This document shows, in pieces, positions 1 through 47,576 of a stretch of DNA of 64,000 nt. The first letter of the stretch is position 1. Each line of letters begins with the position of its first letter. Origin of the DNA: Naegleria gruberi. Its lineage: Eukaryota. Both the position numbers and the translations under genes were made by a program. The stretch lies in the NCBI GenBank assembly GCA_000004985.1, contig GG738853.1; one strand, written 5' to 3'. The notes under the pieces are model-generated. The model worked only from the letters and a program-made list of their open reading frames with translations. It searched no databases and had not been told where the DNA came from.

Positions 1-1991
1 ATAATGAACCTAATAGTTTAGATGCTCATTATTTGAATTTGATTTCGAGTGCTATTCAGAAAGAAGTTAGTGCTCTGGAAAGACCATTAATTTTCAATCA
101 TGTGGTTACTGAACCATTTTGGAGATTATTGGAAAGTTCAATTATTTATTCACCAGATAATTGCCAAAATTCAACAGTGAATGATAATTTGGCATTATCC
201 ACGAGTCCTAACTGTCCTACTTCACCTGGTACTCTCATGATGAAGATTTATTCGAGTTCTACAACTAGTAATTATGCCAATAATTCATCACTGGTTCACA
301 TTGCTGCCAAACATAATCGAGTTGAGATTTTGGAATGGTTAAAATCATGTTGTTGTGATCAGGAGTGCAATATTGAGAATGATTCACATTCTACAATGTG
401 TATTTCCAGACAAATCACATTGTGGAATTTGAAAGATTACAATGGGTCAACTCCACTTTTTTGTGCATGTCAAGGTTGTCCAACTTCAACAGCCAATGAA
501 GCTGGTGTTTTCCTAATGAGCCAAATGCAAACACTCGATCCACTCTCCAAGTACATTCACCAAACTGACAATTATGGAAACTCTCCACTCTCCCTCTGCA
601 TGAGAAAGAGAGATTGGAAAATGTGTGACTTGCTCATTCTCTTTGGAGCCAGTATCGATGGAAACACTGGTGCATTTGGAGAGAGTTTACTCCACACTTC
701 AATGAGAGATTTGGACATGTTGAGAGTTGAATTCATTGCCAAGAGAGCTCCAAAGGCCCTCCTGAAAAAGAATCAAAAAGAAGAGAATGCTCTCTTTTCA
801 TTGGTGAAAGATTTCAGATGTAATGTGAATGCAGGAAGATCATTCATATTGGGAAGTAGTGATTTCTCAACCATGTCAACGAATATAGCACAAACAAATT
901 GTACGAGTCCAGAGAGTCCCTCCCCAACTTCACCTTACAGTGAAACTAAATCAGCATTGAGAAGTGCTGTGAATAGAGCTTTCCCTAAGGAACAGAGAAT
1001 TAATTTTATTCGAATGATTCTTGAGAGTGGATCGTCAGTATTTGGTAGGGAAGTCTTTGAAAAGGCATTGAGCTTGAAGAATCAACATGGACGAAACTTT
1101 TTATTAGAATCAGTGGCTTGTGGCGACCATATTGCCACAAAAGAAATTGTAAATAGTCTTTCAATACTTTCACTAGTAGCAGAGGAATGCTGTAGTGATC
1201 CTAGAAAACTAATGGAATCAATAGTTTTCACAAATGATAGAAATTCAAAGAATATTCTTCATCTTTCGATTGAATTCGCCACGAAACGAATGAATCAACA
1301 TAATAGAGAGGATTACCAAACGTGGTTGGATAGTTTCTACTTTCTCCTGTCATGGTTAGATGAGAATCTTGCATATGGTGCCTTATTTAATAGAGAATGC
1401 ACTGGATTATTAAGTGGAAAGGATTCGAATGGTTTATTTCCACACCAATATCTTGAAAAGGAAGTTTCAAATAATCAGAGTGATATTAGATGGAAGAATG
1501 TTTTGGAAATTATGAAATCTTATGAATCCAAGTGGACTTTCAATTCGAAAGGTGCCCTTCCATCAAATGGACTTTCGAATAACTCAAAGAGAGGTTCAAC
1601 AAGTAAGAAACAATCAATTTTCTCATTTCTTACTTCTCATCAACCCTCTGAAGAAATCATGACACCAAAGAAGATTAGGCAACTTTCCAGAAAATCAGGA
1701 AACTTCACACCAAAGAAACTTGTCACTTCTGAAGCCTTTTCGAAAGATTCGGCTTTGTTATCCGAATCTAAGGATAAGTTGGCAGCGCCACTGAAACCAC
1801 ATAAGGAAAGTTTCCTTACTGATCACTCTACTTTATATTCGAATAGTTCACAAAGTATAGTTTCGACTGTTAGCAATTTGAGCAGTCATTCGAATGCAAC
1901 AAATTATTCTGAGCCTTCAAATAGAACTCAGAAACTCTTTTCTGGAATTATGAAAAAGTTAACAGGAAAGAATAAATCCTATCTCTATTAG
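1..1991 (+). CDS. ankyrin-repeat protein with S/N-rich C-terminal tail; 5' end truncated by window edge
   Basis: 652-aa ORF. Ankyrin-like repeats are visible in translation (SLVHIAAKHNRVEILEWL, GSTPLFCACQGC, GNSPLSLCMRKRDWKMCDLLILFGASIDG). The track start at 33 is a TTG, and the frame stays open back to nt 3, so the true start lies upstream of the window. Confidence 0.55.
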   Translation, partial: NEPNSLDAHYLNLISSAIQKEVSALERPLIFNHVVTEPFWRLLESSIIYSPDNCQNSTVNDNLALSTSPNCPTSPGTLMMKIYSSSTTSNYANNSSLVHIAAKHNRVEILEWLKSCCCDQECNIENDSHSTMCISRQITLWNLKDYNGSTPLFCACQGCPTSTANEAGVFLMSQMQTLDPLSKYIHQTDNYGNSPLSLCMRKRDWKMCDLLILFGASIDGNTGAFGESLLHTSMRDLDMLRVEFIAKRAPKALLKKNQKEENALFSLVKDFRCNVNAGRSFILGSSDFSTMSTNIAQTNCTSPESPSPTSPYSETKSALRSAVNRAFPKEQRINFIRMILESGSSVFGREVFEKALSLKNQHGRNFLLESVACGDHIATKEIVNSLSILSLVAEECCSDPRKLMESIVFTNDRNSKNILHLSIEFATKRMNQHNREDYQTWLDSFYFLLSWLDENLAYGALFNRECTGLLSGKDSNGLFPHQYLEKEVSNNQSDIRWKNVLEIMKSYESKWTFNSKGALPSNGLSNNSKRGSTSKKQSIFSFLTSHQPSEEIMTPKKIRQLSRKSGNFTPKKLVTSEAFSKDSALLSESKDKLAAPLKPHKESFLTDHSTLYSNSSQSIVSTVSNLSSHSNATNYSEPSNRTQKLFSGIMKKLTGKNKSYLY

Positions 1992-2175
1992 AAAGTTTAA
2001 ATTTTATCTTGCAATAGAGTTTCGAATAAATTTATTAGAATAGTTTAATAATTTACAATGAACTGTGAAAATAACGAGAGATATTTATGGAAATAATTGA
2101 CCAATCATAAATGTACAAGGCTTGTTTCGTCATTTTCATCACCTGTCCTTTAGAATAACAAGTTTCAAATAAAAA

Positions 2176-2763
2176 ATGGCTCAATCTCTACTTTCGAATG
2201 GTATCTTGCTTGGTTTCGTATTGAACACCATTCTTCTTTCTATTAGAATGTTTATTTGTTCAATATTAGCTGCTATCTTTCGAGTCCGAGAGAAGAATCA
2301 TAAAACATTATCCGAAAGTGGACGAAACATAACACTGCTCGATTCAGAGCAAAGAGCTCAAGCTAGACTTTCGTCCTCTCCTTCCATGTCATCTCTAGAT
2401 GATGTTTCCAACAACAGACCAACACCATCCTCATCATCAATTCCTAAATTAGAAGATTTACTTTCGTATAGAACTGAACAAGTTTTACGAAACGATTTGG
2501 AAAACATTTGTCCTTTCTTTCTAGTAAACGTAGCTTTCGTCATTATCTGCCAACAATTAGAACAACCAATTTGGCATTCAATTATTGCAAATTCACTCAT
2601 GGGATTATTTACAACATCGAGAATTATTTATTTATTTGCCTATTTGAGGAATTTATTAATTTTGAGGAATGTGAGTTGGTTATTGGGATTTGTATTGACT
2701 ATTTCATTGGCTGGTTATTCAATTTTTTGCATTATCTTTTTGGAAGATAATTTCCAAAATTAG
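2176..2763 (+). CDS. MAPEG-family protein (microsomal glutathione S-transferase 1-like)
   Basis: 195 aa with a real ATG. RNDLENICPFFLVNVAFVI...SRIIYLFAYLRN matches the MGST1 core (VERVRRAHLNDLENIIPFL...ARIYHTIAYL). Four predicted helices; a Ser-rich insertion sits between helix 1 and the conserved RxxxNDLEN loop. Confidence 0.6.
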   Translation: MAQSLLSNGILLGFVLNTILLSIRMFICSILAAIFRVREKNHKTLSESGRNITLLDSEQRAQARLSSSPSMSSLDDVSNNRPTPSSSSIPKLEDLLSYRTEQVLRNDLENICPFFLVNVAFVIICQQLEQPIWHSIIANSLMGLFTTSRIIYLFAYLRNLLILRNVSWLLGFVLTISLAGYSIFCIIFLEDNFQN

Positions 2764-2793
2764 TAATTTTTATAAATATTAAATTTGTAATTC

Positions 2794-3390
2794 TTAATAT
2801 TTAATAATATAATTAAGAACCAATGATGGTTGCATATTTTCATGAGCTGAATTTCCACCAACTTCATTGGTTGTGAAATTGTGAGTATGATTGGCTCCTG
2901 TAAAATTATCGTCATCCTTATGAGTAGCTGGACCTCCACACCATCCTGGAGTATGGAAAACATCAGAAATTGGTCCAGATTGATGAACTATAATGTAAGG
3001 TTGTTTGTTGGCTTTTCCAGTGGTTCCTGAGTGTGAATGACTTGGTAGTTCACTAATTTGCAATTGGTGAGATTCTTCTCCAACTTTTTGAGCTAGAGTT
3101 CTATTGGAAAGTCCAGCTCCGTGACCAATTCCAACAACTGCTCTTCCCCTGAGGTCGGGAACATTGAATGAGTGAGGTCCTCCTGTACTTCCATATGCAT
3201 TTCCAATAGTTTGAAACAATCGAATATAATCTGGATGACTATTCGGATAGGTGGCTCCATCACACAATAACCAACCTGCTGGTATAGTTGTTCCAGCAAA
3301 TGCATTCACAATACCAACAGGAATTATAATTTGAGATTCTAAACGTGCAATTCTTTGTAATAAATCATTCAAGTTTAGTTCGTTTGTCAA
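2794..3390 (-). CDS. phage tail-collar (Collar/MdpB-like) domain protein; N-terminus and start codon unresolved
   Basis: 198-aa ORF with collar-domain hallmarks: N-terminal coiled coil (LNDLLQRIARLESQI), VNAFAGTTIPAGWLLCDGA...FNVPDLRGR, ANHTHN, and C-terminal NMQPSLVLNYIIKY. The first codon is TTG. There is no in-frame ATG before residue ~185, and a TAA sits immediately upstream in frame. Confidence 0.5.
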   Translation of the reverse strand: MTNELNLNDLLQRIARLESQIIIPVGIVNAFAGTTIPAGWLLCDGATYPNSHPDYIRLFQTIGNAYGSTGGPHSFNVPDLRGRAVVGIGHGAGLSNRTLAQKVGEESHQLQISELPSHSHSGTTGKANKQPYIIVHQSGPISDVFHTPGWCGGPATHKDDDNFTGANHTHNFTTNEVGGNSAHENMQPSLVLNYIIKY

Positions 3391-4169
3391 ATCAAATTAC
3401 CAACACAACGAGCTTTTAATTGTTGCTCGAATATCACATCACTTTTTGAAATCACGATCAGAACGAAAAAGGACTTGGAGGAACAACAAAGGATTAGAAA
3501 TGGGAACGTTGTAATTAAATTGTTACTAGAATTCTCTCAGAAGAAAGTTGATTAGAAGTAAAAGTTCCTTTCAGAGCTACAAGAAAATTACCAATCAAGC
3601 TGATATTCAATATTTATAATGACTCACCAGTCAATTGAAAAGCAAATCCAAGCTCCATTTCTTGCTGTAAATTCTCTTCTTGGTTTCTTCATGGTATTAA
3701 TTAACCGTAGAAGAATTGCCAATTTGAGCTATTGTACAAGATGTGAGTGTTAACAACTTGGTAGCTTTTCAACATTGCACAACAAATTTTTGTACGGTGC
3801 GAATCGAATAGATGGATAATTAAATAGTACCTCAAAGTTTTTGTGAATTATATAATTCTAGCAAAGCACGACTAGATTGGAACTTTGAAAGTGATTTCAT
3901 GTCAATGGTCTCTTCCCATAAAATACAACTAACAATCTAATTGGGTGAAAAATTGGTTGACTTTGTAATCTGCAAACTTTGAAGAACTTTATTTTCAATT
4001 TTGATTGGCTAGTTCCTTTGTAAAACATGAATGAACACTCAATCTCAAAATAAGCTTCCACTTTTTATTCGAAATAGTGATGTTTATGGTAATTTCACAC
4101 TAATCTCACTAATGGCCTTTTAAGCGCGCCATTCACACACTTTCGTCCAGAATATTCGAAACAAAAAAA

Positions 4170-7094
4170 ATGTTGAACAAGCTATCTATTTTTCAATATT
4201 TACTATTGTCAATTGTGTTTTTCACAACTAGTTACATGTGTCTTTCAACACATGCCAGTTCAGTTGCACCTTTCGTTGGTGTTTCCTCATTTGCTGGCAG
4301 TTTCTCTATTGGTGATGGTTTACCAGCTGCTGAAACTAAAGTTGAAAATGTTTATGCCTTGACAATCAATTCCAAAACTGGTGATCTTTACTTGACTGAT
4401 AACAATAGAGTTCGTAAAGTTTCGTCCACTAACAATATCATGTCCACATTCGCTGGAACAAACAACCAAGTTAATCCTGAAGATGGTCAACCAGCTGTTA
4501 ATACACCACTTGCAGAACCAAGAGGATTAGAAATTAGCTCAAATGGTGAGGTTTACATTGCAGATTATTCCACATGCAAGATTAAAAAAGTTTCCTCTCA
4601 AGGAATTATGACAACCATTGCAGGAACAGGTCCAGGACAAAACAATGATAGAAGATTAGTTTCAGTTTATACTGGAGATGGAGCTTTTGCTAATGAAACT
4701 CAATTGTCATTCCCTCAAGCAATTGCTTTCCATCCAATTACTGGTGAATTACACATAGCCGAAACTCAAAGTTACAAAATTAGAAAGATTACTTTAGAGG
4801 GTAGAATTGCAACAGTTGTTGGAAGTGGACAAAAAGGTCAAGAATCACCAGATGGTGTTTTGGCTGTCAATGCAATTATTGGAGCTCCAGGAAATATCAT
4901 CTTTGATTCGATTGGAAATATGTATCTATCCGATAGATCATTTCACAAAGTTAGAAAGGTCCTTACCAATGGTACCATTGTTACAATTGCTGGAAATGGT
5001 ATGAGTGCCTATAATGGTGATGGTATCTTGGCTGTTTCTGCTTCACTTTTCAGACCAAGTGGATTGGCCCTTAGCTCCACAGGTGAGCTCTATATTGCCG
5101 AAAGTTATGGTCATAGAATTCGTAAAGTCTTGACAAATGGTACAATTATTACTATTGCTGGAACTGGAGTTGCTGGTTATGAAGGAGATGGAGGTTTAGC
5201 TGTAAATGCTCTCTTGGATGCACCAGAATCAATCTTTTTGAGTTCTGATAATTATCTCTTGATTTCTGATTTTGGAAATAAGAGAATTCGTAAAATTTCT
5301 CTATTGGATGGAACTATTTCAACTATTGCAGGAGATGGTTTGGGAGATGGAAAAGCTGCCTCAGTTTATGGTATTTTGAGATATCCAATTGATGTTAAAA
5401 AGGGACCAAATGGAATTCTGATTGCAGATTCTGGTAATGCGAGAGTGAGAAGTGTTTCTAATGGTGGAATTATTTCAACCATTGCAGGTTCAGGTACAAA
5501 TGGTAACCCACAACTTAGAGCCCTCAGAGAGCTTGCTACAAAGGCAAAGTTCGGTACTACTTATGCAATTACAACAAGATCAGATAATGGTGATGTCTAT
5601 GTGATAGATGATACCAATAACAAAATTTTCAAAATTTCTAACCAAGATGGTTCAATTACAGCAATTATTGGTGATGGCAATTATGGATTTACAGAGGATG
5701 GAAGTATTGCAGAGGGTTCATCAGTTGGAGGTTTAAGTGGTGTTGCACTCAATTCATTGGGTGAGGTCATCTTTACAGAGTCCAATAGAATTCGTAAAAT
5801 TTTGACAAATGGTACACTTGTTACCATTTCAGGATATGGAAATCTTCAAGATTCAGGTCAAGGATTTAGTGGAGATGGAGATTTGGCTCAATATGCTTCC
5901 CTTTCTTCTCCAGGTCGTTTATTCATCCACTCAGATGACATTTACTTTGCCGATCAAGACAATTACAGATTCCGTAAGATCTTTGCTAATGGTACAATCA
6001 CAACTATTGCAGGAACAGGATATGGAGATTATGGAGCTGATGATATTTTGGCCACAGAAACATATCTTGCAAGACCAACAGATATTGCCATGAATTCGAA
6101 AGGAGAATTAATCATTTCTGACGCTAAAAGAATTAGAAAAATTGACTTGAATGGAATAATTGTTACTCTGGCTGGAAGTAACGTTGCTGGTTTTTCAGGA
6201 GATGGTGGTCCAGCTGCTGATGCAACCTTTGGAACTTTGGGAGGAATCTATCTTGATTCGAATGATGATATTTATGTTAGTGATCCTGATAATCATAGAA
6301 TTAGAAAGATTTCCCTCATGTGCCCAACCGATTATGCATTGAATGGTAGTGAGTGTATTCCAGTATGTTTTGGAGTTGTTAGCAATGATCCATCAGTTTG
6401 TTCTGGTAAGGGTTCATGTACTCAAAACAATACTTGTCAATGCTCACCTTCCTATTATGGAGCCAATTGTGATTCCTTCAATTGTTCTGGAATTTCCTCC
6501 AATTCAACACTTGTTTGTTCTTCCCATGGTGTTTGCTCTTCTCCAGATACTTGCAATTGTGAAAATGGATATTATGGAAAGAATTGTGAATCATTTAATT
6601 GTTTTGGTGTCAATTCTCAAAATTCCACTAACGTTTGCTCAGCACAAGGAAATTGCACATCTCCAGATAAGTGTAATTGTAAGACTGGATATTTGGGAAG
6701 TAATTGTGAAATGTTCAATTGTTTTGGTGTCAATTCTCAAAATTCCTCCAATGTTTGTTCATCACAAGGAAATTGCACATCTCCAGATAAGTGTAATTGT
6801 AAGACTGGATATTTTGGAAGTAATTGCGAATCATTTAATTGTAAGGGTATTAAGAATAGTGATTCGAGTGTTTGTTCATCTAGAGGTCAATGTATTTCAC
6901 CAGATAATTGTAAATGTACTACAGTTAATAGTTATGGAGTGAATTGTGAATTCATTGTCGAAGGAAAGATTTCAAATATCACAGCTACAAAATCCAATGC
7001 TAGATTGAATGATGGTTCTTCAATTAAGACTCCTTATATGTTGTTGGTTACAACTTTGTCAATTATCATCATGTCAATTTTCTTGATTCTTTAA
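4170..7094 (+). CDS. secreted NHL-repeat (beta-propeller) protein with C-terminal EGF/tenascin-type Cys repeats and a hydrophobic C-terminus (GPI anchor or TM)
   Basis: 974 aa with a real ATG after an A-run. The N-terminus is a signal peptide (MLNKLSIFQYLLLSIVFFTTSYMC). NHL-type repeats recur (YIAD/YLSD...RIRKI). There are six CxxxGxCxxxxxCxCxxxYxGxxCExFxC units, and the ORF ends with a hydrophobic tail (LLVTTLSIIIMSIFLIL). Confidence 0.7.
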   Translation: MLNKLSIFQYLLLSIVFFTTSYMCLSTHASSVAPFVGVSSFAGSFSIGDGLPAAETKVENVYALTINSKTGDLYLTDNNRVRKVSSTNNIMSTFAGTNNQVNPEDGQPAVNTPLAEPRGLEISSNGEVYIADYSTCKIKKVSSQGIMTTIAGTGPGQNNDRRLVSVYTGDGAFANETQLSFPQAIAFHPITGELHIAETQSYKIRKITLEGRIATVVGSGQKGQESPDGVLAVNAIIGAPGNIIFDSIGNMYLSDRSFHKVRKVLTNGTIVTIAGNGMSAYNGDGILAVSASLFRPSGLALSSTGELYIAESYGHRIRKVLTNGTIITIAGTGVAGYEGDGGLAVNALLDAPESIFLSSDNYLLISDFGNKRIRKISLLDGTISTIAGDGLGDGKAASVYGILRYPIDVKKGPNGILIADSGNARVRSVSNGGIISTIAGSGTNGNPQLRALRELATKAKFGTTYAITTRSDNGDVYVIDDTNNKIFKISNQDGSITAIIGDGNYGFTEDGSIAEGSSVGGLSGVALNSLGEVIFTESNRIRKILTNGTLVTISGYGNLQDSGQGFSGDGDLAQYASLSSPGRLFIHSDDIYFADQDNYRFRKIFANGTITTIAGTGYGDYGADDILATETYLARPTDIAMNSKGELIISDAKRIRKIDLNGIIVTLAGSNVAGFSGDGGPAADATFGTLGGIYLDSNDDIYVSDPDNHRIRKISLMCPTDYALNGSECIPVCFGVVSNDPSVCSGKGSCTQNNTCQCSPSYYGANCDSFNCSGISSNSTLVCSSHGVCSSPDTCNCENGYYGKNCESFNCFGVNSQNSTNVCSAQGNCTSPDKCNCKTGYLGSNCEMFNCFGVNSQNSSNVCSSQGNCTSPDKCNCKTGYFGSNCESFNCKGIKNSDSSVCSSRGQCISPDNCKCTTVNSYGVNCEFIVEGKISNITATKSNARLNDGSSIKTPYMLLVTTLSIIIMSIFLIL
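6587..6840 (+). repeat. 120-bp tandem duplication (about 2.1 copies, roughly 93% identical) encoding two adjacent EGF-like units
   Basis: Lines at 6601 and 6721 are identical for long stretches (gttttggtgtcaattctcaaaattcc...ggaaattgcacatctccagataagtgtaattgtaagactggatat). The period is exactly 120 nt, i.e. 40 codons. Confidence 0.7.
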
Positions 7095-7211
7095 TTCATA
7101 TTCTAAACAAGATTGTAATAAACTTGAAATTAGTAAAATACTTGCAAGTCTCAACTTGGCAACAAATTAGTTAATCCAAAACCCTTTAGAGAAATATAAA
7201 TGATTGTTTAT

Positions 7212-7446
7212 TTACATTGAAATATCTCTAGTCTTATCTTCATCCTTGGTTCCACTTTGATCCTTAACTGGAATTCCTAAAAATCTTCTCACTCCAGGCA
7301 ATCTCAATGTATAAATTTGAAGCATTGAGAAAATATTCGAAGTGATCCAATAAACAAACACTCCACTTGGTAAGGCACCAGTAATTGGCACCATGACAGC
7401 TGCAACAAATCTCATAACACTTCTTACTTGTCTCATTGTCTCAGTT
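7212..7446 (-). CDS. OXA1: Oxa1/YidC insertase, exon 3 (C-terminal)
   Basis: 90-nt intron at 7447..7536 (gtgagt...aataatgcag). The junction is in frame and gives ...AAEPRTETMRQVRSVMRFVAAVMVPITGALPSGVFVYWITSNIFSMLQ, the conserved C-terminal helix of the YidC/Oxa1 family. Confidence 0.7.
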
Positions 7447-7536
7447 CTGCATTATTTCACATGAACATTTCACAATATTCCAATTATTTCAAATATAGAA
7501 TACATTAGCTTCCATATTGTAATGATAAAAACTCAC

Positions 7537-7975
7537 CTTGGCTCAGCAGCTCCCATTTCCACACTAATCAACCAAGTGACTGCACTAATCACTGGCAAGG
7601 TAGCTGTAGGATCAACACTCGACAAGTCATCAAACCACCACAAACCACCTGTTCCTCTACATTCTGGATCGTGAAGGCAAATTCTTTCAACACTGACGAA
7701 AACTGATAAAAACATTGGAGCCATGATGAGTGGTGAGATAATGTTGAGGAGAGGATGGCATTTGTTTTCTTTCATGGTTTCTTGGAATTCAACAGCAGCT
7801 TGTACCTTTTCTTCTTCAGATGCAGTTTTACTTGCCATAATTTCTGACTTTTCGAATAGAATTGGACGAACTTGATCAAGACGAGCACTATTTCTCGTAA
7901 GACCAATGTTAAGAGGAAGAACCAGACAACGGAATAGAATGGTTGTTGCCATAATAGCTCCATACCATGGTAATC
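7537..7975 (-). CDS. OXA1: Oxa1/YidC insertase, exon 2
   Basis: 49-nt intron at 7976..8024 (gtaagc...ttttattgcag). The exon carries the conserved LxxxQxxSxxKMxxxQPE-type region (LTRNSARLDQVRPILFEKSEIMASK) and TM segments. It ends with a GTGAGT donor at 7536. Confidence 0.7.
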
Positions 7976-8024
7976 CTGCAATAAAAGTTCAATATTTTTG
8001 TAAACTATTAAATGAATTGCTTAC

Positions 8025-8598
8025 CGATCATATCATGCAAATATTGAAGCAAATCCTGAATAGCATTAATATGAGGCATAGTATGTGGCAAATGTCCTCC
8101 CACAAATAATTCATGTTCCTCACCAAAAGTCAATGGTGGATGATATTCATGTTGAGGAGTTTCATGAATTAATTGTAATCCTCTAAACAGATCGTCATCA
8201 GTTTCCATAACAGGAGCTCCTGTATTATTATCTATTGCAGTAGAACCAGTAGGTGGTGTTGTTAAAGATGGATCAACAACCATGGATGGTAGGATGTTTG
8301 TAGAATTGGTTGTGGTAGACTCGACGGATGAGGTGGATCCACCTTTCAATCCCTTGAACCAATTCAACAAGGTTGAATAATTTCTGTGCTGAGTTGCATT
8401 CATTCCTCCCCCAGAGAAACCATTCTTCATCATCATGCTACTACTCATCAAATGATTATTACCATTCTTGGAAAATTGCATTGCCAATGATGATGATGAA
8501 ACAGTAGCCTTGCATTGAACATTTCGCATCAATCCACCCTCTCTACCAATACCCCCATTCAAATGACTCATACACTTCTTGATAACACGTCTCGACAT
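8025..8598 (-). CDS. OXA1: Oxa1/YidC mitochondrial inner-membrane insertase, exon 1 (long N/S-rich presequence)
   Basis: ATG at 8598. The exon ends at ...DMIG with a GTAAGC donor at 8024. Splicing to exon 2 reconstructs the family motif LPWYGAIMATTILFRCLVLPL. Confidence 0.65.
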
Positions 8599-10513
8599 TT
8601 TTTTGTAAATTGTTGCTCCAAGTTAAGGTAATTTGTTGGAATGATTTTCTATTGGGTGATGATAAAGGTCGCGAAACAAAGGAATCCAATATCCAGAGGA
8701 TAATAATCTTACCTTGTTCCATCATCATGCAACAAACTTTGTGGCACAACACTCGATGAAAAACAGTACAAAATTGCAGCTAAATCTCTTCTACTGCATA
8801 GATTCTCGGGATGATGGGTTCGATATCGATAGTGAATGTGACTAAATAATACATGTTATCGGGCAGTGAATCTATCATTGTCTCTTTGCTTGTTTCTTTT
8901 TTGGAGATTTGGTCAAAAAGTTCTCAAAAGTTGGAATGGCGTTAGTTTAGACATGAAAGGAAATTATTACGCAAACAAAATGTCAGTTGCGGCACAACAA
9001 TTGATGGAATGTTGTGCAAGGGATGCATTGCCACATCATTATTTGGATCACATTGTGGACGACGCAACAATTTTTCATATGGATAATGATGATGAGAAAC
9101 AGTTGATGATGAATTTTCATATTAATATGGAAGAAGCAGAATTGAAATTAATATTGAATAGAAATTAATTTATTGAATATTTATTTGGAAAGTGTTGATG
9201 TTGATGATTGGGATTTGAGATTTTGTGCTGCATTTCTCTTTAGTATTTGGCGTGCTCGCCACGAAGCCTTGATCTTACTCCAATGATTCACTTTGAATGA
9301 GAAAAAGATGAATAAATTGGAAGTTACTGGTGAAGTCAAGTGCATAATAACCTATTTATTCATCATCAGTTAGGATTTTTCAATATATTGCTACTAAACT
9401 TACTTGAATGAATGGATGAGTGAAAGGACTGGTCATTGTATGTGGAGGCAATTTTTAAAAAATTTTGAAATGATAATGCCGATTTTGGCGCCAAATTTGG
9501 AAATGGTCGACGTATCCCAACATTTGAGAGATCTAAGAATAAAAAATCAATTAAAAATATTTTTACATGCTGCATGAGATTAAAAACGGGTTGAAACATG
9601 CATGTTGGGCTTTGATGACTTTAGGAGAACTGTTTTACCTTAATGATGAGCACCAACTGGATGATGTTTAAATGATTTGAATTTTAAATAAAAAAAATGG
9701 AATTAAAATTATTAAAAAAAAATGGTGATGATTGCTGCCAGTTTTATTGGACCAAATCTTTCGAATGATGAAGAGAATGATTCTGTTGGAAAGTAAACTT
9801 TTTTTTCCGCAGTGTCTTGAGCATTTCAACCCGATGAACAACTAAATTCATGATCTTCGGTGAATACCTACAGAGATATTCGTCATATTATTACACTCAA
9901 TGGACACATTCAAATCATTTACATTTGCAATGATCGTTTAGACCATTGAATATTTGCTTGATTGATGTTATTTTTCAAGGAGTATCAACACAAACCTTAT
10001 ATTAATTAATATCTGTATTGTGGTCATGTTGTTTTGTTGTTTTGGTTGACTTGCAAAAAATTCCATTTCAAGTTCAAGGACTCAAATTTGTTCTAGCCAC
10101 TTTCCAAATTTTTTCACAGTATCTGATAATGTAGAGCTCCTTTGTAAGGGTCTTGCCAGCTATAATTGGAAATTATTAAAGCGAGAGGTGAAAGCATGGT
10201 TGGTTCGCAACAGATTAACACGCAGGGTTTGCCTTAAAAACGCCCTATTAAGGAAAGCCACCTTTTGTGAAGCTTGTCTCTATACTGAAATTCTTCTTTT
10301 TTGTCATTGCGTTTTAGGAACACTTGCTGGGAACTTTTTCTCTACTGGTTTAGCGCCACCTTCCAACGTTATAAGCCTTAATTCAAACCAAAAAAAAACA
10401 GCCAACATCAACGCTTACCATCTATTAATGGTTATTTTTTCACGATAAGCGATAAAAACAACAACAATAATAAACCAAAAATTATAGCAGCAATCAATAC
10501 ATCATCATCTCAG

Positions 10514-13500
10514 ATGACCACTCATTCCTTGGGAAGTAATGGAAGCTATGCTGTTGAGGTTGATGATCACACACCGAATATATCGGCCTCAATAGGGTTG
10601 GCCGGTATGCCAAGAGGATCAGCCTCAGTACTTTCAGCAGATAATCAAACTTCACTCACAGCTGGAGCAGCAGCTTCACTGTTAAACGACGGCGCCTCTA
10701 TGTGGAATTCATTCGAGGAGAGTGCCACTAACTTTATGTTAAATATTTACGAGAAGACAAAAATTCACCAAACAAATTGGTATAACTTTACCTATAACCT
10801 AGTATTGTACATTTATCTCCTTTGGACAATGATGTTTCTTCCCGGATTGGCAGACGAAGAATATAATTGGGGAGAATATTCGCATTGGATCTTTAAGGCA
10901 GCAAATTATCCAGTTTCTCTATCCCTAAACTTGGTTTCGTATGAAGTCATTATTGTGATATTTTGCTGTTTTGTCCTTCTAATATGTGTCTACTTTATTC
11001 TGTTTTTTGTTGGCTATAGGGCAAGCTTACTAGCAAACAAGCACTGGAAAAAGATCAAGCTTGCCATAAGAATCATTCATGGATTTCTCACACTTACTTC
11101 CTTAATTTATACCTATGTGTTTGGTGCCTTTATAGATTGCAATTATGGAACCTCTGTAAATTTAGATGGTTATGATAGACCTGTTGAAGTATTGAGGAGG
11201 CACCCAACCATTGCCTGCAGTGGTGCAGTTAATTCAACTCTCATTTCTGTCGGTTCTATATTCTTCATGTTACTACTTGTTATTCAGTTGATCTCTGTTT
11301 TAACAATGTCGGAGGATAATCCGAGTGGCAAGAATGCCTTTGCAACAGACAAGGTCTACTACTTGTTTCCATTCATTGCAACACAATGCATTTACATTAT
11401 ACTAGTTTGTGCAATACCTCCAACCTATAACTATGTCAAGCCGGTTATTTACCTTGCCTTATGTATTCTACATGTGCCCTACCATTTGTGGTTGTTACCT
11501 TATTTTAAAAGAGTGGAGAATACTCTCTTCTTTGGCTTTGTTGGTGCCAGATTGGGAGGAGCTGTTGGTTTTCTGGTCTCTAGCTTGGTCTCTACTGATG
11601 ATTCAAATTGGACTCTTGGTTTGGGCATGATGGGTCTCACGATTGGCCTTATGCTTGTATGCTTTGTAGTTTTTGTTGTTGCAGCAGAGATTTATATTGG
11701 TATTCTATACAGTTCTATCAGAAGAGGTGTTATTCAAACTATTAAGGTTTCGGTTGATTTTAGTCAAGCCCAAACAGTCAGATCCTCCATCGAAAGAGAA
11801 GCATCTGGTCTCTATCAAAAATTTGAAAAGGATGGTAAACTGAGAGCCTTCAACCTCTTCTTGAAATTCTCAATGAGATCAGGTAGAAAGGCTTTTGGAG
11901 ATTTTCAACTTTCTGATGTTGAAATTGCTCTTGCTTTGATTAAGGGTGTTTCATCTCAAAAGTGTGCCAATAATGTTGATATTCTGATTACCTCAGCGTT
12001 GGTTGTAGCTTACTTTTTACCAAACTTCACCAGTGTCATACTGGCAGGTGGTATTGTCAGAAAGGTTGCCAAGCTCAAGTCCAATCCATTGAAAAAGTAC
12101 ATTATTACCCAAAGAACAAAGGAAATTGAATTCCTCAGTGGAGAAGACTTGTCTGGTAAGAACATTATGGAAATTAAGAATATTATTGGAAGACTGGAAA
12201 AGAAGCAAGAATTGGTTCTCCTTCTTCACAAATCATTCTGGAAGGAAATGATCAATGAATCTTTAGAAATTACCAAGATTGAAACAATCAACAGAAAGAT
12301 TGCTGAATTGGTGCACTCTTGTCAAAGCTCTTATGATATTCTCATATCCAATTACAACAATGAAAAGTCAGTGATTAGATCATATGCCAGATTTGTTGAA
12401 GACTACAAGTTTGATCCAGAAAAAGCTCAAGAAATGTACCACGAAGCAAACATTATTGAAGAGGAAGAAGCTGTCAATAGAAGACATCAATTATCAAAAA
12501 CCTTAAAGAACAAGTATACATCCAATCGTGTAGTGCCACTTCCAAATCAATTCTCTGTAGCCTCTAATATTAGGGGAGGTGGTGGTGGTTTTGAAAGTGA
12601 AGATGAAGATAAGGGATACTTTGAAAAGATCGACATGAACAAGCAAGGCCACTCTTCTGACTCTAGATTAGATGACATGGACTTTGAAAATGAAAAGTTT
12701 GAAGGTGTAGAGGAAAACGCAGCCACAGCACAACAAAAGAAGGAATTTCTCTTTAGAACTGCACTTTCATCTTCCATGTATAATAAGCCTCAATTTATTA
12801 CCTTTGTTGTTTTTGCTTCAGTTTCATTGATCATACTAACAATTGGTCTTATCCTTGGATTGGTGTTCTCTACTGGTGTAACATCTGATATTGCTCTTTC
12901 AAATGATGTGTGTATTCCTGCTTCTGTTCCTCTCTCAGTTCTTATGTACATTAGAAAAAAGCAATTGCACGATAATATTAAGGAATACTCAATGTCATGG
13001 AATACAGAAAACACAGCCAGAGTAGATAAGCAATGTAACAAGCTCTCAAATCTGTATTCTATTGGTATGAATACTTTCTCTGAATCAGTCCGATCTGACT
13101 ATACTAGAGGCACCAGATTACTCAAACAACCTGTGTTGATTTATTCCTCAACAAATACTTCAGAATACACTGGTTACTCTACATCCAGAAATTCGACTAT
13201 TGCAGAAATTACAAAAGCATTGGTAAAAATGTGTAGTGCCTATGATAACTACTCAGAGGAAAGATATAAGCAAACAGTATCTGATTACAATTTTATGTTC
13301 CTTTATCAAAACAGAATAAGTTTTTCCTCATCTTATGAAAGCTTTTGCTCTGAATATCTGGACAGAAATGGAGAAAAATCCTCAACATACAGAACTATCT
13401 TTTTAATCTATTACATTTCCACAACAGCTTTATATATTCTTAGTGCCTTCTCAGTGATTGCATTCACTAGATACCACCTTACCTCACTGAATGATTCTAT

Positions 13501-15844
13501 CAAGTTGATAGGAAGTTCAATTTCAAAAGATAAGGTTGGTAAAATCTATCACAAGTTGGAAGGTAAAGTTGAGGAAGATCTACAAATAGGTTCAGATGGA
13601 TTCTTTTCCATGTTTGTTAAACCAAATAACTCTATTTCTATAATGGTTATTTTTATGATTTGTATTACAGCCATTTGCGTCACCTTGTTCTTTATTGAAA
13701 CGATCATTAATTCAAACAATTCCTCCATGGCCATTCAAAATATTCAATTCAGTGTAAATATTATGATGACTGCCCACAGAGTTGGTCTCAGATTGGGAGA
13801 ACTTTTCATTTTCAAATCTAAATTCCCTTCGACTCCTATGAATGATAGGCATTTAACTACAGATGATGAATTAGCACAATTCCACAAAGACAATAAGAAC
13901 CTAGCAAGCTTGATGCAGAGCTCGTGGTACTCTTTACTTTTTGGTACATCAGATAATGATAACGATAAGTTATTTGGAAAATATCCAGATATTGATCAAC
14001 TTATTCAAGGAACCTGCAAGAGTACATCAAACACAACATCCAATAGTACAACGTGTGTTGGTTTGGATGATTTGGTTTCATATTTGACAAGTTCTTCAGC
14101 CCTCTTTAATGAGGATGTCTTCTATGCCAGTTCTACCTTTAACCAATCAGATTTATTCACACGTATGGAATCCATCTATTCTGATGTAGATTTACTTGCC
14201 CAAAAGCTCGAAAGTTTGATTCAAATTTATTCCAAGTACAATTCTGTTCCTTCAATCACTATCACAATTGTTTTTGGAATATTGGGATATGCTTCATTGG
14301 TAACCGCTATTTGGTTCACTTCAAGATCTATGACATCTTTCTGGAGAGAATATCAACAATTAAGAATGATGTTGAGCTACTTTACACCTGAAGTATTGGA
14401 AGAGAATGAACAACTCAAGAACTTTGTTCTCTTCAAGTCATTGCCAGGTAGATTATCTGAACTATTCAAGAGTAAGAAATCATCAGGTGACACCTCCAAC
14501 AATGAAGACTCACATGTTAAAAGTATTCTTGAAGCTGCTGTAGATGGAGCTGTATTGTGTAATTCTCAATGTGAAGTTACCATTTTCAATCCTTCTGCTG
14601 AAAGATCATTTGGTTTCAAGAAGAGTGATATTATGGGTTTACCTATATACACACTCTTTGATGAATCAAGCCACACCAAGATGAGAAAGATCATATCTGG
14701 TATGTTAGCAAAGAGTGGTAATGATGGTGAGTCTATTGAGGTTGAATGTGTTCGTAAGAATCAAACAAAATTCCCAGCCAAGATTAATATCTTTTCAAGT
14801 AAGATTGGTTCTGACACTGTAATTGTCTCCTTTATTAAGGATATTACTCCTGAAAAGAAGCAAAATATGCTGTTGGAAGAAGAAAAGAAGAAATCAGATT
14901 CACTCTTGTTGAACATTTTACCAGAAGCTGTAGGTGTTCGTCTTAAGAGTGGTGAAACTTTTATTGCCGAAAAGTTCAATGATGTCACTTGTTTCTTCAG
15001 TGATATGGTTGGTTTTACAAGTATTTCATCCAATATGAGTCCAACTGATCTAGTTAAAATGTTAAATACTATTGTCAATGGATTCGACTCACTTACAGAC
15101 ACTTTCCATTTGGAAAAGATTAAGACAATTGGTGATGCCTATTTTTGTGTAGGTGGTATTCACGGTTCTGCAACTTCGGATCACCCTGAAAGAGTTCTTC
15201 GTTTTGCCATGGCCACATTCGCTGTAGTTCATGACTACAACCTTGAAAATTTGGCCAATAAGGAAAATTCAAATCCAAGTCTCCTTAATATACGCATAGG
15301 AATTAATACTGGTAGTGTTGTCGGTGGTGTTATTGGTACAAAGAAGTTTGCCTATGATATGTGGGGTGATACTATCAATGTTGCAAGTAGAATGGAATCC
15401 ACATCCTTGCCAGGAAGAATTCAAGTTTCCAGATCTACCTATGAAAGAGTATATGATATGGGTTATGAATTTGAGGAACGTAGAATTGAAGTTAAGGGTA
15501 AAGGAAGCACTCAAACCTACATGCTCAACAATATGTATCACAAGAATCCATTGGATGCAAATGGTTTCTCTAATGTTAATAATGTTGTTGTTACTGCTTC
15601 TGCTGCTGTTTCATTACCACCACAACCTTCCCAAGGCAATAACAGTACAAACAATCTTAACAATAATAGCATGGCCTACAATAACCAAACAAGTAATAAT
15701 GGAAGTGGAGATCATTTGGAAGAATCAGATGATGATGACGATTTGAGAAGATCATCCAATAATGTAGTTGTTCTTGGCCGCAATAGGAATCCACCAAGTC
15801 ATACAAGCCACACAAGTAGTGTAGATGATATCTTGATGGAATAA
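10514..15844 (+). CDS. polytopic membrane protein with a PAS domain and one class III nucleotidyl cyclase catalytic domain (predicted adenylyl cyclase)
   Basis: 1776-aa single ORF with a real ATG. Two clusters of hydrophobic helices lie at about aa 90-400 and aa 770-1000. A PAS-like segment is present (ILEAAVDGAVLCNSQCEVTIFNPSAERSFGFKKSDIMGLPIYTLF). The cyclase core is FSDMVGFTSIS...EKIKTIGDAYFCVGG...YDMWGDTINVASRMESTS. Both metal-binding Asp residues, the Lys of KTIGDAY, the Asp of YDMWG (adenine-specifying pair) and the Asn/Arg of the transition-state motif are present. Confidence 0.8.
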   Translation: MTTHSLGSNGSYAVEVDDHTPNISASIGLAGMPRGSASVLSADNQTSLTAGAAASLLNDGASMWNSFEESATNFMLNIYEKTKIHQTNWYNFTYNLVLYIYLLWTMMFLPGLADEEYNWGEYSHWIFKAANYPVSLSLNLVSYEVIIVIFCCFVLLICVYFILFFVGYRASLLANKHWKKIKLAIRIIHGFLTLTSLIYTYVFGAFIDCNYGTSVNLDGYDRPVEVLRRHPTIACSGAVNSTLISVGSIFFMLLLVIQLISVLTMSEDNPSGKNAFATDKVYYLFPFIATQCIYIILVCAIPPTYNYVKPVIYLALCILHVPYHLWLLPYFKRVENTLFFGFVGARLGGAVGFLVSSLVSTDDSNWTLGLGMMGLTIGLMLVCFVVFVVAAEIYIGILYSSIRRGVIQTIKVSVDFSQAQTVRSSIEREASGLYQKFEKDGKLRAFNLFLKFSMRSGRKAFGDFQLSDVEIALALIKGVSSQKCANNVDILITSALVVAYFLPNFTSVILAGGIVRKVAKLKSNPLKKYIITQRTKEIEFLSGEDLSGKNIMEIKNIIGRLEKKQELVLLLHKSFWKEMINESLEITKIETINRKIAELVHSCQSSYDILISNYNNEKSVIRSYARFVEDYKFDPEKAQEMYHEANIIEEEEAVNRRHQLSKTLKNKYTSNRVVPLPNQFSVASNIRGGGGGFESEDEDKGYFEKIDMNKQGHSSDSRLDDMDFENEKFEGVEENAATAQQKKEFLFRTALSSSMYNKPQFITFVVFASVSLIILTIGLILGLVFSTGVTSDIALSNDVCIPASVPLSVLMYIRKKQLHDNIKEYSMSWNTENTARVDKQCNKLSNLYSIGMNTFSESVRSDYTRGTRLLKQPVLIYSSTNTSEYTGYSTSRNSTIAEITKALVKMCSAYDNYSEERYKQTVSDYNFMFLYQNRISFSSSYESFCSEYLDRNGEKSSTYRTIFLIYYISTTALYILSAFSVIAFTRYHLTSLNDSIKLIGSSISKDKVGKIYHKLEGKVEEDLQIGSDGFFSMFVKPNNSISIMVIFMICITAICVTLFFIETIINSNNSSMAIQNIQFSVNIMMTAHRVGLRLGELFIFKSKFPSTPMNDRHLTTDDELAQFHKDNKNLASLMQSSWYSLLFGTSDNDNDKLFGKYPDIDQLIQGTCKSTSNTTSNSTTCVGLDDLVSYLTSSSALFNEDVFYASSTFNQSDLFTRMESIYSDVDLLAQKLESLIQIYSKYNSVPSITITIVFGILGYASLVTAIWFTSRSMTSFWREYQQLRMMLSYFTPEVLEENEQLKNFVLFKSLPGRLSELFKSKKSSGDTSNNEDSHVKSILEAAVDGAVLCNSQCEVTIFNPSAERSFGFKKSDIMGLPIYTLFDESSHTKMRKIISGMLAKSGNDGESIEVECVRKNQTKFPAKINIFSSKIGSDTVIVSFIKDITPEKKQNMLLEEEKKKSDSLLLNILPEAVGVRLKSGETFIAEKFNDVTCFFSDMVGFTSISSNMSPTDLVKMLNTIVNGFDSLTDTFHLEKIKTIGDAYFCVGGIHGSATSDHPERVLRFAMATFAVVHDYNLENLANKENSNPSLLNIRIGINTGSVVGGVIGTKKFAYDMWGDTINVASRMESTSLPGRIQVSRSTYERVYDMGYEFEERRIEVKGKGSTQTYMLNNMYHKNPLDANGFSNVNNVVVTASAAVSLPPQPSQGNNSTNNLNNNSMAYNNQTSNNGSGDHLEESDDDDDLRRSSNNVVVLGRNRNPPSHTSHTSSVDDILME

Positions 15845-15897
15845 ACTTTAAGAACAGACGTCTCCTTAATGTGTGAAAATTAAAAACACAAATAAAA

Positions 15898-16008
15898 ATG
15901 TCTCAATATGAACTAGAGAAACAACTCGTCGATTCTTGTTCGGAAGGTAATGAACAGAAAGTAAGAGAATTACTTCAGAAGGGTGTTAATCCTAATTGTG
16001 TGGAAGAG
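15898..16008 (+). CDS. ankyrin-repeat protein, exon 1
   Basis: ATG at 15898 after aaataaaa. Translation is MSQYELEKQLVDSCSEGNEQKVRELLQKGVNPNCVEE, the start of an ankyrin repeat. A GTTTGT donor follows at 16009. Confidence 0.55.
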
Positions 16009-16130
16009 GTTTGTGTTTTTCATCATTCTCATCAGCAAACACAATAATATTTATTATTTAAATAATTCCAAAACATCATCACAAAACACAATAGTATGGC
16101 TATTCTCCGTTATATTGTTGTTCATACAAG

Positions 16131-16295
16131 GGTCATACCTCACTCATCAAATTACTAATCGATTGTGGAGCTAAAATTAATTATGCCAATGGTCCAACAA
16201 AGTGGACAGCCCTCTTTGCCTCTGTCTTTTCCAAACAAAAGTCAAGTGTAGAAATTCTACTCAAATTGGGTGCCAATCCAAACATTCCAAGTGAT
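16131..16295 (+). CDS. ankyrin-repeat protein, exon 2
   Basis: Acceptor ...ttcatacaag at 16130. The in-phase translation GHTSLIKLLIDCGAKINYANGPTKWTALFASVFSKQKSSVEILLKLGANPNIPSD is a canonical ankyrin repeat. A GTATGT donor follows at 16296. Confidence 0.6.
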
Positions 16296-16385
16296 GTATG
16301 TATTATTATATCATCCTCTTTCTCATCATCAAATATTAATATTATTTAAATTTTAATATTATAATAATATTAAACAACAACATAG

Positions 16386-17252
16386 AAAGGAGAAACACCA
16401 CTTCAATTTGCCAGAAAGCAAAAATTGGATGATCTTGCCGAATTACTCTCCAAGAATACATCTTCATCAGCAATACTTATTGATGATGATAATACAACAT
16501 TATCAAATCCTAGCCTTCCTCCATCCAATTCTAATTCTACAAACATTTCCGTAGTCTCTAATTCTTCTTCTTTATCATCAGCACAACATGTAAACAATAA
16601 TAATAACAATAATATTAGTAATAGTACTTCTATGATTACTAACAACAATAACAGCAATCATAATAATAGTAGTGTTGTTTCTAGTAATACTGTTCAACAT
16701 GCAGAAGAAGAAGGAAAACAAAATAATGATGAAGAGAATATTTGGGATATCATCAATGAAGGAATTAAACTTTCTGAAGATTTGGATGAGAAATTGAATG
16801 GACTTTCACTTTCGGATAAGAAGAGTAGAGTGGAAGAAGAGGAATTGCTCTTGTCTCCACTTGTATTCGAAAGTGAAAGTTTACAAGTGATTTCGTTTAG
16901 ATATCCTGATCATTTCACACATAAATTTGGTGATTTGGATTACACAACTAGAATGCTAACCATTCACTTTGTGTTGGAATCAACTTTATTGACAGAACAT
17001 TTAATTTCAAAATTACAAGGAAAGTTTAATGTTGGAAATGAATTTAAACTTGTGGAAAATCAAGTTCCAACAAGAAAGATTTCAATTAAATATCAAGTTT
17101 CAAAGGAGGTTGATTTGAATACTTTGAAAACCTCTATTACTGATATACATTCCAAAATTGGGAATGATATCAAGCCATTGAGATATTTACTCTTGATATT
17201 TTCAAAGAATAAGAAAGTGGTCAATCTGGAAGAGACAACCATCGATCTGTAA
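16386..17252 (+). CDS. ankyrin-repeat protein, exon 3 (poly-Asn/Ser-rich middle and C-terminal domain)
   Basis: Acceptor ...aacaacatag at 16385. KGETPLQFARKQKLDDLAELL continues in frame into the track ORF 16425..17252, whose listed M is a TTG. Confidence 0.6.
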   Translation, partial: KGETPLQFARKQKLDDLAELLSKNTSSSAILIDDDNTTLSNPSLPPSNSNSTNISVVSNSSSLSSAQHVNNNNNNNISNSTSMITNNNNSNHNNSSVVSSNTVQHAEEEGKQNNDEENIWDIINEGIKLSEDLDEKLNGLSLSDKKSRVEEEELLLSPLVFESESLQVISFRYPDHFTHKFGDLDYTTRMLTIHFVLESTLLTEHLISKLQGKFNVGNEFKLVENQVPTRKISIKYQVSKEVDLNTLKTSITDIHSKIGNDIKPLRYLLLIFSKNKKVVNLEETTIDL

Positions 17253-17791
17253 AACTATTTACAACCCCTTGGAGAGAAAGAACAACGGTGAGAAACGGAG
17301 GAATAATGTGCGCCTGGTTTTGAAGGATTTTTAACAAACGAAGGAACAACAGGCAAAAAGAGCAACAGAGAAGAACAACACAAAAACAATCAAGCATGTA
17401 CAAGAAATTTTACCAAGTCAAGAACAAGACAAATATTAACAATAAAGTTCAATTATTAAAATTTATAATAATTCATTATTAACATGAATTGATTCAAATA
17501 TATTTTTGATTCAATGTTTACAACTTGGCAACGGCCATGAATTTCTGAAATTGGAAGTGAGAGACTACGGCTGGTATGAAGTTTGGCATTTTTGGTTTTG
17601 GGTTGGAAAAGATTATGTGTCATGTCTTACCAGCATCCAGTGAAGAAACTTATAAATTATTGCATTTCTCAATAAATACTTGACAATTTCAGAATCTGAC
17701 TTCAAAAATCAAAAACTTTTCACACGATTACAATTCCACAATTGGCAAGTAGAATTGCAAATCTGTTTAATAGGTTTCCACAATAGAAAAA

Positions 17792-19237: not shown

Positions 19238-19920
19238 ACCTCTCTATTAGTTGTTGGTCTTGTGAATCTTGGTATTACTTGACAAACTTTCAGCCAATAA
19301 TTCATAATCCATGAAAGGAATACTGCTCTGTGTTGTTTGTGTGAGAATTCTTGTTTCTGATTGGTCTAATTGACCATCCGTGTTCTTAATTATTCTTCCA
19401 TATCGATCTCTCAGTACAGGAGTTAGCCAACCTGAGTCCGAAAAAAGGTTCTGGTGAGTAGATGGATTGATAAGGTTTAGAATAGAAATTGTCATATTAT
19501 TCATTCAATGGTGAAATTGTAATATCTGGCATCAAAAGTGGAATTCCAATTTGAATCGGTGGAAAGTGCTTGTTTCAAATTCAAATACGAAACTCCTTTA
19601 GGTACCAATTTCACAAGTGTAAAAAATCAAAATTGGGAACTGTCTTATTGGTAGCAAGGACTTTCCACTAATACAATCAAAACAAATTCCATTAGTTTCG
19701 CATAACGATGGTGATTCGCTCAATGGTCCAAGATGATCTTTTTCATACTTTCCCTCTTCGAAAGTGGACCCATTTCTCCCTTCTGACTGTTTATCGTTTC
19801 AAAATTGAAAACCCTCCTGAAAAACATAAAATTCGTGGCTTTGATAATGAACTATTAGTTCTCGTATAATTAACAATGTTTTGAATGAAGAAGCTTTATT
19901 AAAAATAAACAAGAATTAAT

Positions 19921-31236: not shown

Positions 31237-31313
31237 ATTTTCTTTTACAAATTTGAGTAAGTATTGGAAACAAGTGACTCTAGTATTATAGTCTACTGTG
31301 AAGAGCTTTCTTA

Positions 31314-33659: not shown

Positions 33660-33844
33660 GATGGTAAAATAAATTAATTTTTTTTTGATTTAAAATTTGG
33701 AGGGAAATGATTTTATCCAGAATGTGATTGAATCTTTGAGATTATGGAGCCATTTGCAAAAGAAAGTCTCAGTGTTGTTAAATAATAATAATTATTGTTT
33801 GGTACAATTTAATATCACAGAGAATTTACAAAATAGTTACAAGT

Positions 33845-36040: not shown

Positions 36041-36267
36041 CTATATATTTTAATTATTATTTAAATTGTTGTTGTTTGATGAACAATTAAATTATATATT
36101 GTTGTTAACACGATATATAAATATCACCAAGATCATCAATAACAAGATCCAAAACGATAAAGTACAATTAGTCATCAGTCAAATTATCATATTATCCACA
36201 ATCATCATCAAAAAATCCACACAAAAGCACCATCATCAAAAAAACCATCTAAAAAATCTTCACTTAC

Positions 36268-39824: not shown

Positions 39825-39901
39825 ATGACAACCGTTCCAAATATTGCTTCATCATCCCATAAACAACCATATAATGTTTTGGGTCTCGGACAGCCTTTAC
39901 T
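39825..39901 (+). CDS. pfkB-family kinase (adenosine-kinase-like), exon 1
   Basis: ATG at 39825. Translation is MTTVPNIASSSHKQPYNVLGLGQPL followed by CT, with a GTAAGT donor at 39902. Confidence 0.6.
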
Positions 39902-47575: not shown

Positions 47576-47576
47576 T

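Follow-up and report, generated by a model that had tools for sequence, protein, structure and literature searches.

A gene for a phage tail-fibre tip, probably acquired horizontally, at a single nuclear locus of Naegleria gruberi

The DNA analysed here, a stretch of 64,000 nucleotides (nt) from contig GG738853.1 of the Naegleria gruberi assembly GCA_000004985.1 (referred to below as the window), carries near its start a minus-strand open reading frame (ORF) whose product is homologous over its full length to the tips of phage tail fibres. We hold with good confidence that this is a nuclear gene of N. gruberi present at a single locus, that it encodes a fibre tip only, and that it was acquired horizontally from a bacterium, a phage, a phage-tail-like particle or a giant virus. 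The ORF and the parts of its product are as follows:

2794..3390, minus strand: collar/tail-fibre-tip ORF, continuous, 198 codons plus stop, first codon TTG
3139..3315, minus strand: collar domain proper, residues 26-84, ...FAGTTIPAGWLLCDG...FNVPDLRGR, with an AlphaFold predicted local distance difference test score (pLDDT) >90
3031..3039, minus strand: first HxH motif, H118-S-H120, family-invariant, matched in alignment by HKH in T4 gp12 and by HQH in the A-1(L) fibre
2881..2889, minus strand: second HxH motif, H168-T-H170, within ANHTHNF
2797..2838, minus strand: conserved C-terminal strand, NMQPSLVLNYIIKY

The frame is unbroken over its 198 codons and closes with TAA at 2794..2796. The gene is not new: it is already in GenBank and UniProt (XP_002680548.1 / EFC47804.1 / UniProt D2V5I7; 191 amino acids, Naegleria gruberi NEG-M), in an entry with which ORF residues 18-198 are identical and whose name, "microcystin-dependent protein," was transferred by homology. 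The same name is the JGI/IMG label on many metagenomic relatives; it presumably goes back to COG4675/MdpB, and it is uninformative on function. A literature search, which did not take in the 2010 genome paper, returned no mention of the gene, its accessions, or a collar or microcystin-dependent protein of Naegleria. An NCBIfam search of the collar protein gave no match, and an exact look-up of the 191-residue database protein (P0001) and of the 198-residue ORF in the contig index yielded neither an independent N. gruberi contig nor a transcript-derived one.

The initial annotation had read a phage tail-collar domain from the translation, and all four of the motifs that it quoted are present. 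A hidden Markov model search against Pfam Collar (PF07484) bears this out, with residues 26-84 matching profile positions 1-56 of 57 at 63.4 bits (cutoff, 24; E = 1.9e-17). Furthermore, residues 82-192 match Gp10_C (the C-terminal domain of T4 gp10) below the threshold, and tail, tail-fibre or tail-collar families account for 19 of the 21 PHROG matches. Within a family alignment and profile of 49 sequences, Naegleria included, we observe that all family-invariant residues are kept (P37, L58, P78, G104, H118, H120, G178 and P188) and that the Naegleria residue matches at every listed invariant or near-invariant column of the collar pattern (P.G..W..CDG and F..PD.RGR). The head region additionally carries HTPGWCGG (residues 146-153), which together with the second HxH motif makes up a signature common to a minority subfamily.

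Comparison of this profile with the PDB recovers phage fibres of known structure: the A-1(L) fibre (8kec; E = 5e-17, profile positions 27-182), T4 gp12 (1pdi; E = 3.3e-13, positions 19-182), the gp12 entries 1ocy and 5iv5 (about 1e-12 over the N-terminal two-thirds of the profile), and the phage fibres 9qgo and 9nxk. The profile alignment places PSHSH of the Naegleria protein on the HQH of 8kec and the HKH of gp12, which in gp12 is a zinc site on the three-fold axis of the trimer. The AlphaFold monomer, with a mean pLDDT of 73 and an N-terminal helix at residues 7-22, leads Foldseek to the same structures, with 8kec, gp12 (5iv5, 1ocy, 1pdi) and the gp37 needle (2xgf) in the top ranks for PDB and 5lye also among the matches; in BFVD, collar and tail proteins come out on top, headed by E3T4R8 of Cafeteria roenbergensis virus (CroV). 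The protein consists of a single collar plus head and no other domain. It has 191-198 residues, aligns end to end with proteins of 158-276 amino acids, and has no shaft or attachment domain before the collar at about residue 25. Full-length homology to tail-fibre tips is established.

With respect to the surroundings of the gene, two features adjoin its 3' end:

2176..2763, plus strand: MAPEG-family neighbour gene (PF01124, E = 3.4e-10)
2764..2793, no strand: AT-rich spacer, 30 bp, between the convergent MAPEG and collar stop codons

This convergent arrangement is the one initially described, and the composition and codon usage do resemble those of the neighbours. The ORF has a GC content of 0.377, a GC content at third codon positions (GC3) of 0.181, and a codon adaptation index (CAI) of 0.749, relative to a null of 0.724 ± 0.056 drawn from 198-codon pieces of the 14 long ORFs of the window that served as reference; its two other frames score 0.45 and 0.52. 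Positions 1..50056 contain no N, and the same gap-free stretch carries ankyrin-repeat, MAPEG, teneurin-like NHL/EGF, Oxa1-type insertase (with an intron) and PAS-adenylate cyclase genes, as well as a DNA-PKcs gene in four ORFs and genes for beta-adaptin, a PfkB kinase, an RCC1-repeat protein, a histone-fold protein and an ARMT1-like phosphatase. Eukaryotic genes flank the collar ORF at distances of 30 bp and 780 bp.

Integration into the host genome rather than contamination, as first proposed, is what these data indicate. Foreign bacterial or phage DNA, or a chimeric assembly join, might be suspected from a family that is overwhelmingly prokaryotic or viral and from an assembly that has gaps and a redundant island, but we consider either very unlikely, indeed nearly negligible, because the gene lies on a gap-free eukaryotic contig, between eukaryotic genes on either side, and has host-like codon usage. 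The nearest relatives have GC3 values of 0.28-0.59 and loci of 40-63% GC, against the 0.18 of the Naegleria gene, and the junction between the MAPEG and collar genes is seen in a second assembled fragment. Apart from the collar ORF, we found no phage or viral gene in the window; the neighbours are the ankyrin, MAPEG, NHL/EGF and Oxa1-like genes, with no tail module. A search of 1900..4300 for flanking repeats, target-site duplications and inverted repeats returned short matches at chance level and no sign of a mobile element. Judged from sequence, the collar gene was probably acquired horizontally.

The second assembled fragment lies at the far end of the assembled sequence:

50107..50760, minus strand: redundant copy of 2686..3339, 654 bp, holding the MAPEG 3' end, the spacer and collar codons 18-198

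The initial annotation had pointed to this recurrence, together with its MAPEG flank; the recurrence itself stands (651 of 654 positions identical), but not its use as evidence of a second locus. The three mismatches fall at the equivalents of 2721, 2740 and 2789, all within the first 104 bp of the island (a chance of about 0.005 under uniform placement), and its 543 collar-coding bases show none. The island is bounded by exactly 50 N at 50057..50106 and by N padding at 50761..64000, the real sequence ending at 50760, apparently at the scaffold end. A tblastn search of the window with the collar protein recovered only the locus and this redundant island, and the protein searches brought up one N. 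gruberi protein, with no sign of tandem or multiple copies.

A segmental duplication that left two real MAPEG-collar junctions some 47 kb apart would account for the identity (99.5%) and the common orientation of island and locus. We regard such a duplication as decidedly improbable, as the island is as long as one Sanger read, has a placeholder gap of 50 N on one side and the end of the scaffold on the other, and carries its mismatches crowded together at one end. Moreover, positions 2721 and 2740 are covered by a contig (L092) from a closely related strain, described below, which agrees with the main copy at both, so that these mismatches are private to the island. According to a passage in PMC9928731, which cites Fritz-Laylin 2010, N. 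gruberi is a heterozygous diploid, for which reason an uncollapsed allele or a low-quality read end suffices to explain the island. The island is most likely a read-sized contig left unmerged in the assembly (an allele, or a read with a poor end) and not a second locus.

The relatives of the protein were collected in an exhaustive phmmer search of 1.84 billion representative proteins, which found 53,233 members of the collar family. Except for the Naegleria entry itself, none exceeds about 50% identity, and the best matches are metagenomic proteins. No eukaryote appears as the source of any relative listed; most are metagenomic sequences, and those that are named or have an examined context are bacterial, phage or giant-virus proteins. 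Among homologues as small as the Naegleria protein are true tail components: P0024 (158 amino acids, 42% identical) lies among the baseplate, fibre and lysis genes of a myovirus prophage, minor tail proteins of Microbacterium phages are 34-37% identical over 89-98% of the query, and bacterial megaplasmids carry one to three collar copies annotated as tail fibre proteins. A scan of bacterial and archaeal genomes with the single protein gave three weak matches (28-32% identity over 87 residues).

Part of the head sets a smaller group of relatives apart. The segment N..YR.V...H..GW.GG..D...HTHNF is common to the Naegleria protein and to P0002-P0005, P0301, P0316, P0333, P0366, P0380, P0383 and P0308; written as a regular expression, it is found in 19 of about 275 collar-family proteins scanned and misses P0308, which carries an HTHDF variant. 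P0308 is 47% identical to the Naegleria protein, has the HTPGW.GG and CDGAT.P details in common with it, and is encoded on a bacterial contig of 63% GC, in a tail-fibre gene array with insertion sequence (IS) elements beside sheath and tube genes. P0002 comes from a contig of 40% GC with ParA/McdB, transposases and an integrase. The head segment is absent from the protein of the mimivirid-like contig L013 and from the prophage protein P0024. On this character a source in bacteria, phages or tail-like particles looks more probable, though it is not proved, than one among the giant-virus versions examined.

Against this has to be weighed the possibility that the gene came by way of a protist-infecting giant virus or virophage and not straight from a bacterium or phage. 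The mimivirid-like IMG/VR contigs L013 and L044 (23-24% GC) encode collar proteins of 168-170 amino acids that align with nearly the whole of the Naegleria protein at 38-40% identity, and their genes are free-standing at a conserved position (L013, 5992..7423, where they form a tandem pair; L044, 5995..6507). The best fold match in BFVD is CroV E3T4R8, and a collar protein of Orpheovirus was matched as well. Collar proteins are also known from the Organic Lake virophage (OLV) and its host, the Organic Lake phycodnavirus (OLPV; PMC3671162), and an AT-rich donor would account for the low GC3 without long amelioration. However, the 38-40% identity to these copies of nucleocytoplasmic large DNA viruses is no better than that to bacterial and prophage copies and shows no specific affinity to them, the BFVD E-values are alike for the CroV and phage proteins, and the locus has no other flanking viral gene. 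The head signature is found in the bacterial-type group (P0002-P0005, P0301, P0316, P0333, P0380 and P0308 among them) and is missing from L013, as it is from the prophage P0024, and a bootstrapped neighbour-joining tree gives no supported sister group. We hold the viral route to be a tentative alternative, somewhat unlikely on balance.

Several features of the contigs and proteins encountered in these searches may be recorded here. The contig of P0308 (L097, 495..17062) has at least four tail-fibre-like genes, broken by Y1, IS66 and DDE transposase genes, directly upstream of the contractile sheath and tube genes; the array looks like a fibre-swapping cassette of a prophage or of an extracellular contractile injection system. 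Upstream of P0002 and P0003 there is a very large protein without a Pfam match (2149 amino acids in L002 and 2179 in L089), which in L001 is split into 811 + 1051 + 304 amino acids; these regions span 488..10831 in L001, 489..10831 in L002 and 1389..8804 in L089, and in L001-L003 a weak M10/astacin-like peptidase stands between the large protein and the collar gene. L013 and L044 are syntenic and hold genes for a uracil-DNA glycosylase, a TFIIB-like factor, a glycosyltransferase, leucine-rich-repeat proteins and an RPB2 fragment, as judged by eye from ORF translations. Lastly, P0246 (4832 amino acids), P0252 (3883) and P0267 (4616) are giant multi-collar repeat proteins with 6-15 separate collar matches.

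How the gene would be translated is a separate matter. The 198-residue translation initially offered stands as an ORF, but it does not make a valid eukaryotic coding sequence without a spliced 5' exon: it starts with TTG, there is no in-frame ATG upstream of M186, and an in-frame TAA lies at 3399..3397, three codons upstream of the TTG. The public gene model resolves this with two exons:

3628..3658, minus strand: exon 1 of the public model, 31 nt, MELGFAFQLT plus 1 nt, ATG at 3658..3656
3339..3627, minus strand: predicted intron, 289 nt, donor CTG/GTGAGT at 3627, acceptor TTTAG/AATCT
2794..3338, minus strand: exon 2 of the public model, ORF residues E18..Y198 plus stop

We listed all upstream segments that begin with ATG and can be spliced in frame from a GT donor to an AG acceptor; the sole combination with good signals is this public model. 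Alternative 5' exons were rejected for poor donors (GTTCTT, GTCAAC, GTACAA and similar), and no further upstream coding exon with good splice signals appeared in the enumeration. The ATG of exon 1 has G at -3 and G at +4. The Oxa1/60KD_IMP-like gene offers a local example of N. gruberi splice signals, being split at 7437..7532 (minus strand) by an intron of about 80-90 nt with AAG/GTGAGT and CAG/ boundaries, and its GTGAGT donor is the one predicted for the collar gene.

Evidence from a second strain bears on the same region. For the MAPEG neighbour, the one relative in the database is P0125 (99% identity), from metagenome run ERR1078381; contigs L092 and L093 of that run, from the independent ENA and Logan assemblies, match window positions 1..2765 at 99.2%. 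Both contigs break off at 2765, overshooting the MAPEG stop by 2 bp and falling 29 bp short of the collar stop; coverage may have been lost in the spacer, which is very AT-rich, or the break may reflect a presence/absence polymorphism. A protein database search, whose retrieval was not exhaustive, returned no near-identical collar ORF from ERR1078381. A query with the N-terminus of the NHL gene, aimed at a contig upstream of the collar gene, missed even the N. gruberi self-hit, so that absence from that database is not evidence.

Taken together, a number of points weigh against reading the ORF as an acquired and working gene. The public splice model may be wrong: its intron would take out the first 17 codons of the continuous ORF, which are nevertheless still open, align with the coiled-coil segment preceding the collar in homologues, and are predicted by AlphaFold to be helical. 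The start codon and the intron are predictions from sequence, and the true N-terminus is uncertain, the openness of a mere 17 codons not being significant. None of the gene models has a signal peptide or a membrane anchor, and the protein searches, with non-exhaustive retrieval, gave no other Naegleria, heterolobosean or eukaryotic protein. The AlphaFold model is poor for residues 84-180 (pLDDT 48-74 over 81-190), as expected if the head is a chain that would fold only as an intertwined trimer. Finally, the neighbour-joining analysis (94 sequences, 100 bootstraps) singles out no donor lineage: the sister group shifts between replicates and the best reaches 13/100.

Some of these points would also suit a non-functional relic, untranslated or without selection, for which the public model would be an annotation device for supplying a start codon. 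Such a relic would explain the lack of an in-frame ATG and the stop three codons upstream of the TTG, the failure to find a signal peptide or to retrieve an orthologue from other Naegleria species, and the non-recovery of a near-identical ORF from the 99.2%-identical strain whose contigs end at 2765. It fits less well with an intact frame of 198 codons in a genome of 35% GC, with the retention of all family-invariant residues and both HxH motifs, and with a codon usage at or above the host mean where the out-of-frame CAI is 0.45-0.52. In addition, a strong GTGAGT donor and a TAG acceptor stand in frame with an ATG that has a purine at -3 and G at +4. We therefore consider a relic unlikely and retain the reading of an intact, horizontally acquired gene.

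If the gene is expressed, its product would amount to the distal, receptor-binding tip of a fibre and no more, with the collar preceded by a short N-terminal helix and followed by a head that the two HxH motifs hold and the conserved C-terminal strand closes. By homology with T4 gp12, T4 gp37 and the A-1(L) fibre, the protein would form a parallel homotrimer, in which a metal ion lying on the three-fold axis would be bound by six histidines from each HxH motif, and the resulting rigid knob might bind a surface polysaccharide or protein. Expression would proceed from the eukaryotic 5' exon (ATG 3658) across the 289-nt intron, because the ancestral ORF has no ATG. The Naegleria protein cannot serve in a phage tail here, as shaft, attachment domain and tail module are all lacking. 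It may act in the cytosol, in the phagosome, or after unconventional export, and binding to the surfaces of bacterial prey is, as a guess, the most natural role. The bolder idea, that a domesticated phage-type tip, provided by its host with a eukaryotic 5' exon and intron, works as the amoeba's trimeric recognition module for bacterial polysaccharides, in prey recognition or phagosome handling, and may be recent enough to show strain-level presence/absence polymorphism, strikes us as doubtful at best.

Were expression and function to be demonstrated, a bacterivorous eukaryote would be reusing a phage device for recognising bacterial surfaces, and a prokaryotic ORF would have become a eukaryotic gene by acquiring an exon with an ATG, an intron and the codon usage of its host. 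At present, the gene is one more candidate for horizontal gene transfer in a genome already known to hold such genes, and its interest is modest unless expression and a binding function are shown. The main practical value of the analysis lies in correction: the "second copy" is most likely a redundancy of the assembly, and nothing about function follows from the public name.

Elsewhere in the window, two genes may be mentioned. At 19921..33659 (minus strand), the four long ORFs span DNA-PKcs from its N-terminal domain to FATC, apparently as a complete gene with a few short introns or frame changes; two of them, 19921..24819 and 24813..28643, overlap by 7 bp. The histone-fold protein at 46687..47346 (plus strand) has its Pfam Histone match at residues 148-219, after an acidic N-terminal extension of about 145 residues, and its ORF stops inside the fold, which makes a second exon likely; the protein may be an H3 variant of the CENP-A type.

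Compared with known systems, the Naegleria protein resembles T4 gp12 (1H6W/5LYE, 1OCY, 1PDI, 5IV5), the founding member of Pfam Collar PF07484, in having a collar followed by a head, with the HxH motif aligned to the gp12 HKH. It differs in that gp12 has 527 amino acids, a long shaft, a baseplate-binding N-terminus and a place in a tail module, whereas the Naegleria protein, about 190 amino acids long, has no more than a helix of some 20 residues ahead of its collar, carries a second HxH motif, and is encoded among eukaryotic genes. Among relatives of known structure, the cyanophage A-1(L) fibre (8KEC) ranks first by both profile and Foldseek, with collar, HxH and C-terminal strand in the same order, but it is a virion component of 379 amino acids whose larger head has several extra HxH-type repeats. 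The free-standing COG4675 MdpB proteins and the small minor tail proteins of phages have the same end-to-end organisation at 158-276 amino acids and 34-46% identity. Bacterial copies of the MdpB type often occur two or three to a replicon or inside tail modules. The Naegleria copy, by contrast, stands alone, follows the codon usage of its host and depends on a spliced 5' exon to obtain an ATG.

The head-signature subfamily has the extra head segment in common with the Naegleria protein and, at 40-50%, the highest identity found; its members differ in length (231-489 amino acids) and in lying on bacterial-type contigs of 40-63% GC, with collagen-like segments in P0333 and P0301 and longer N-terminal extensions in others. 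Among eukaryote-associated proteins, those of L013 and L044 share the small free-standing architecture, whereas the giant-virus copies examined are without the Naegleria-type head segment. CroV E3T4R8, the Orpheovirus protein and OLV18/19 are, like the Naegleria protein, collar proteins tied to eukaryotic hosts. A further likeness, by description only, is to Pb4_109755 of Plasmodiophora brassicae, a collar protein from a set of predicted secretory proteins (PMC9530463), which is predicted to be secreted, whereas the Naegleria protein has no evident signal peptide.

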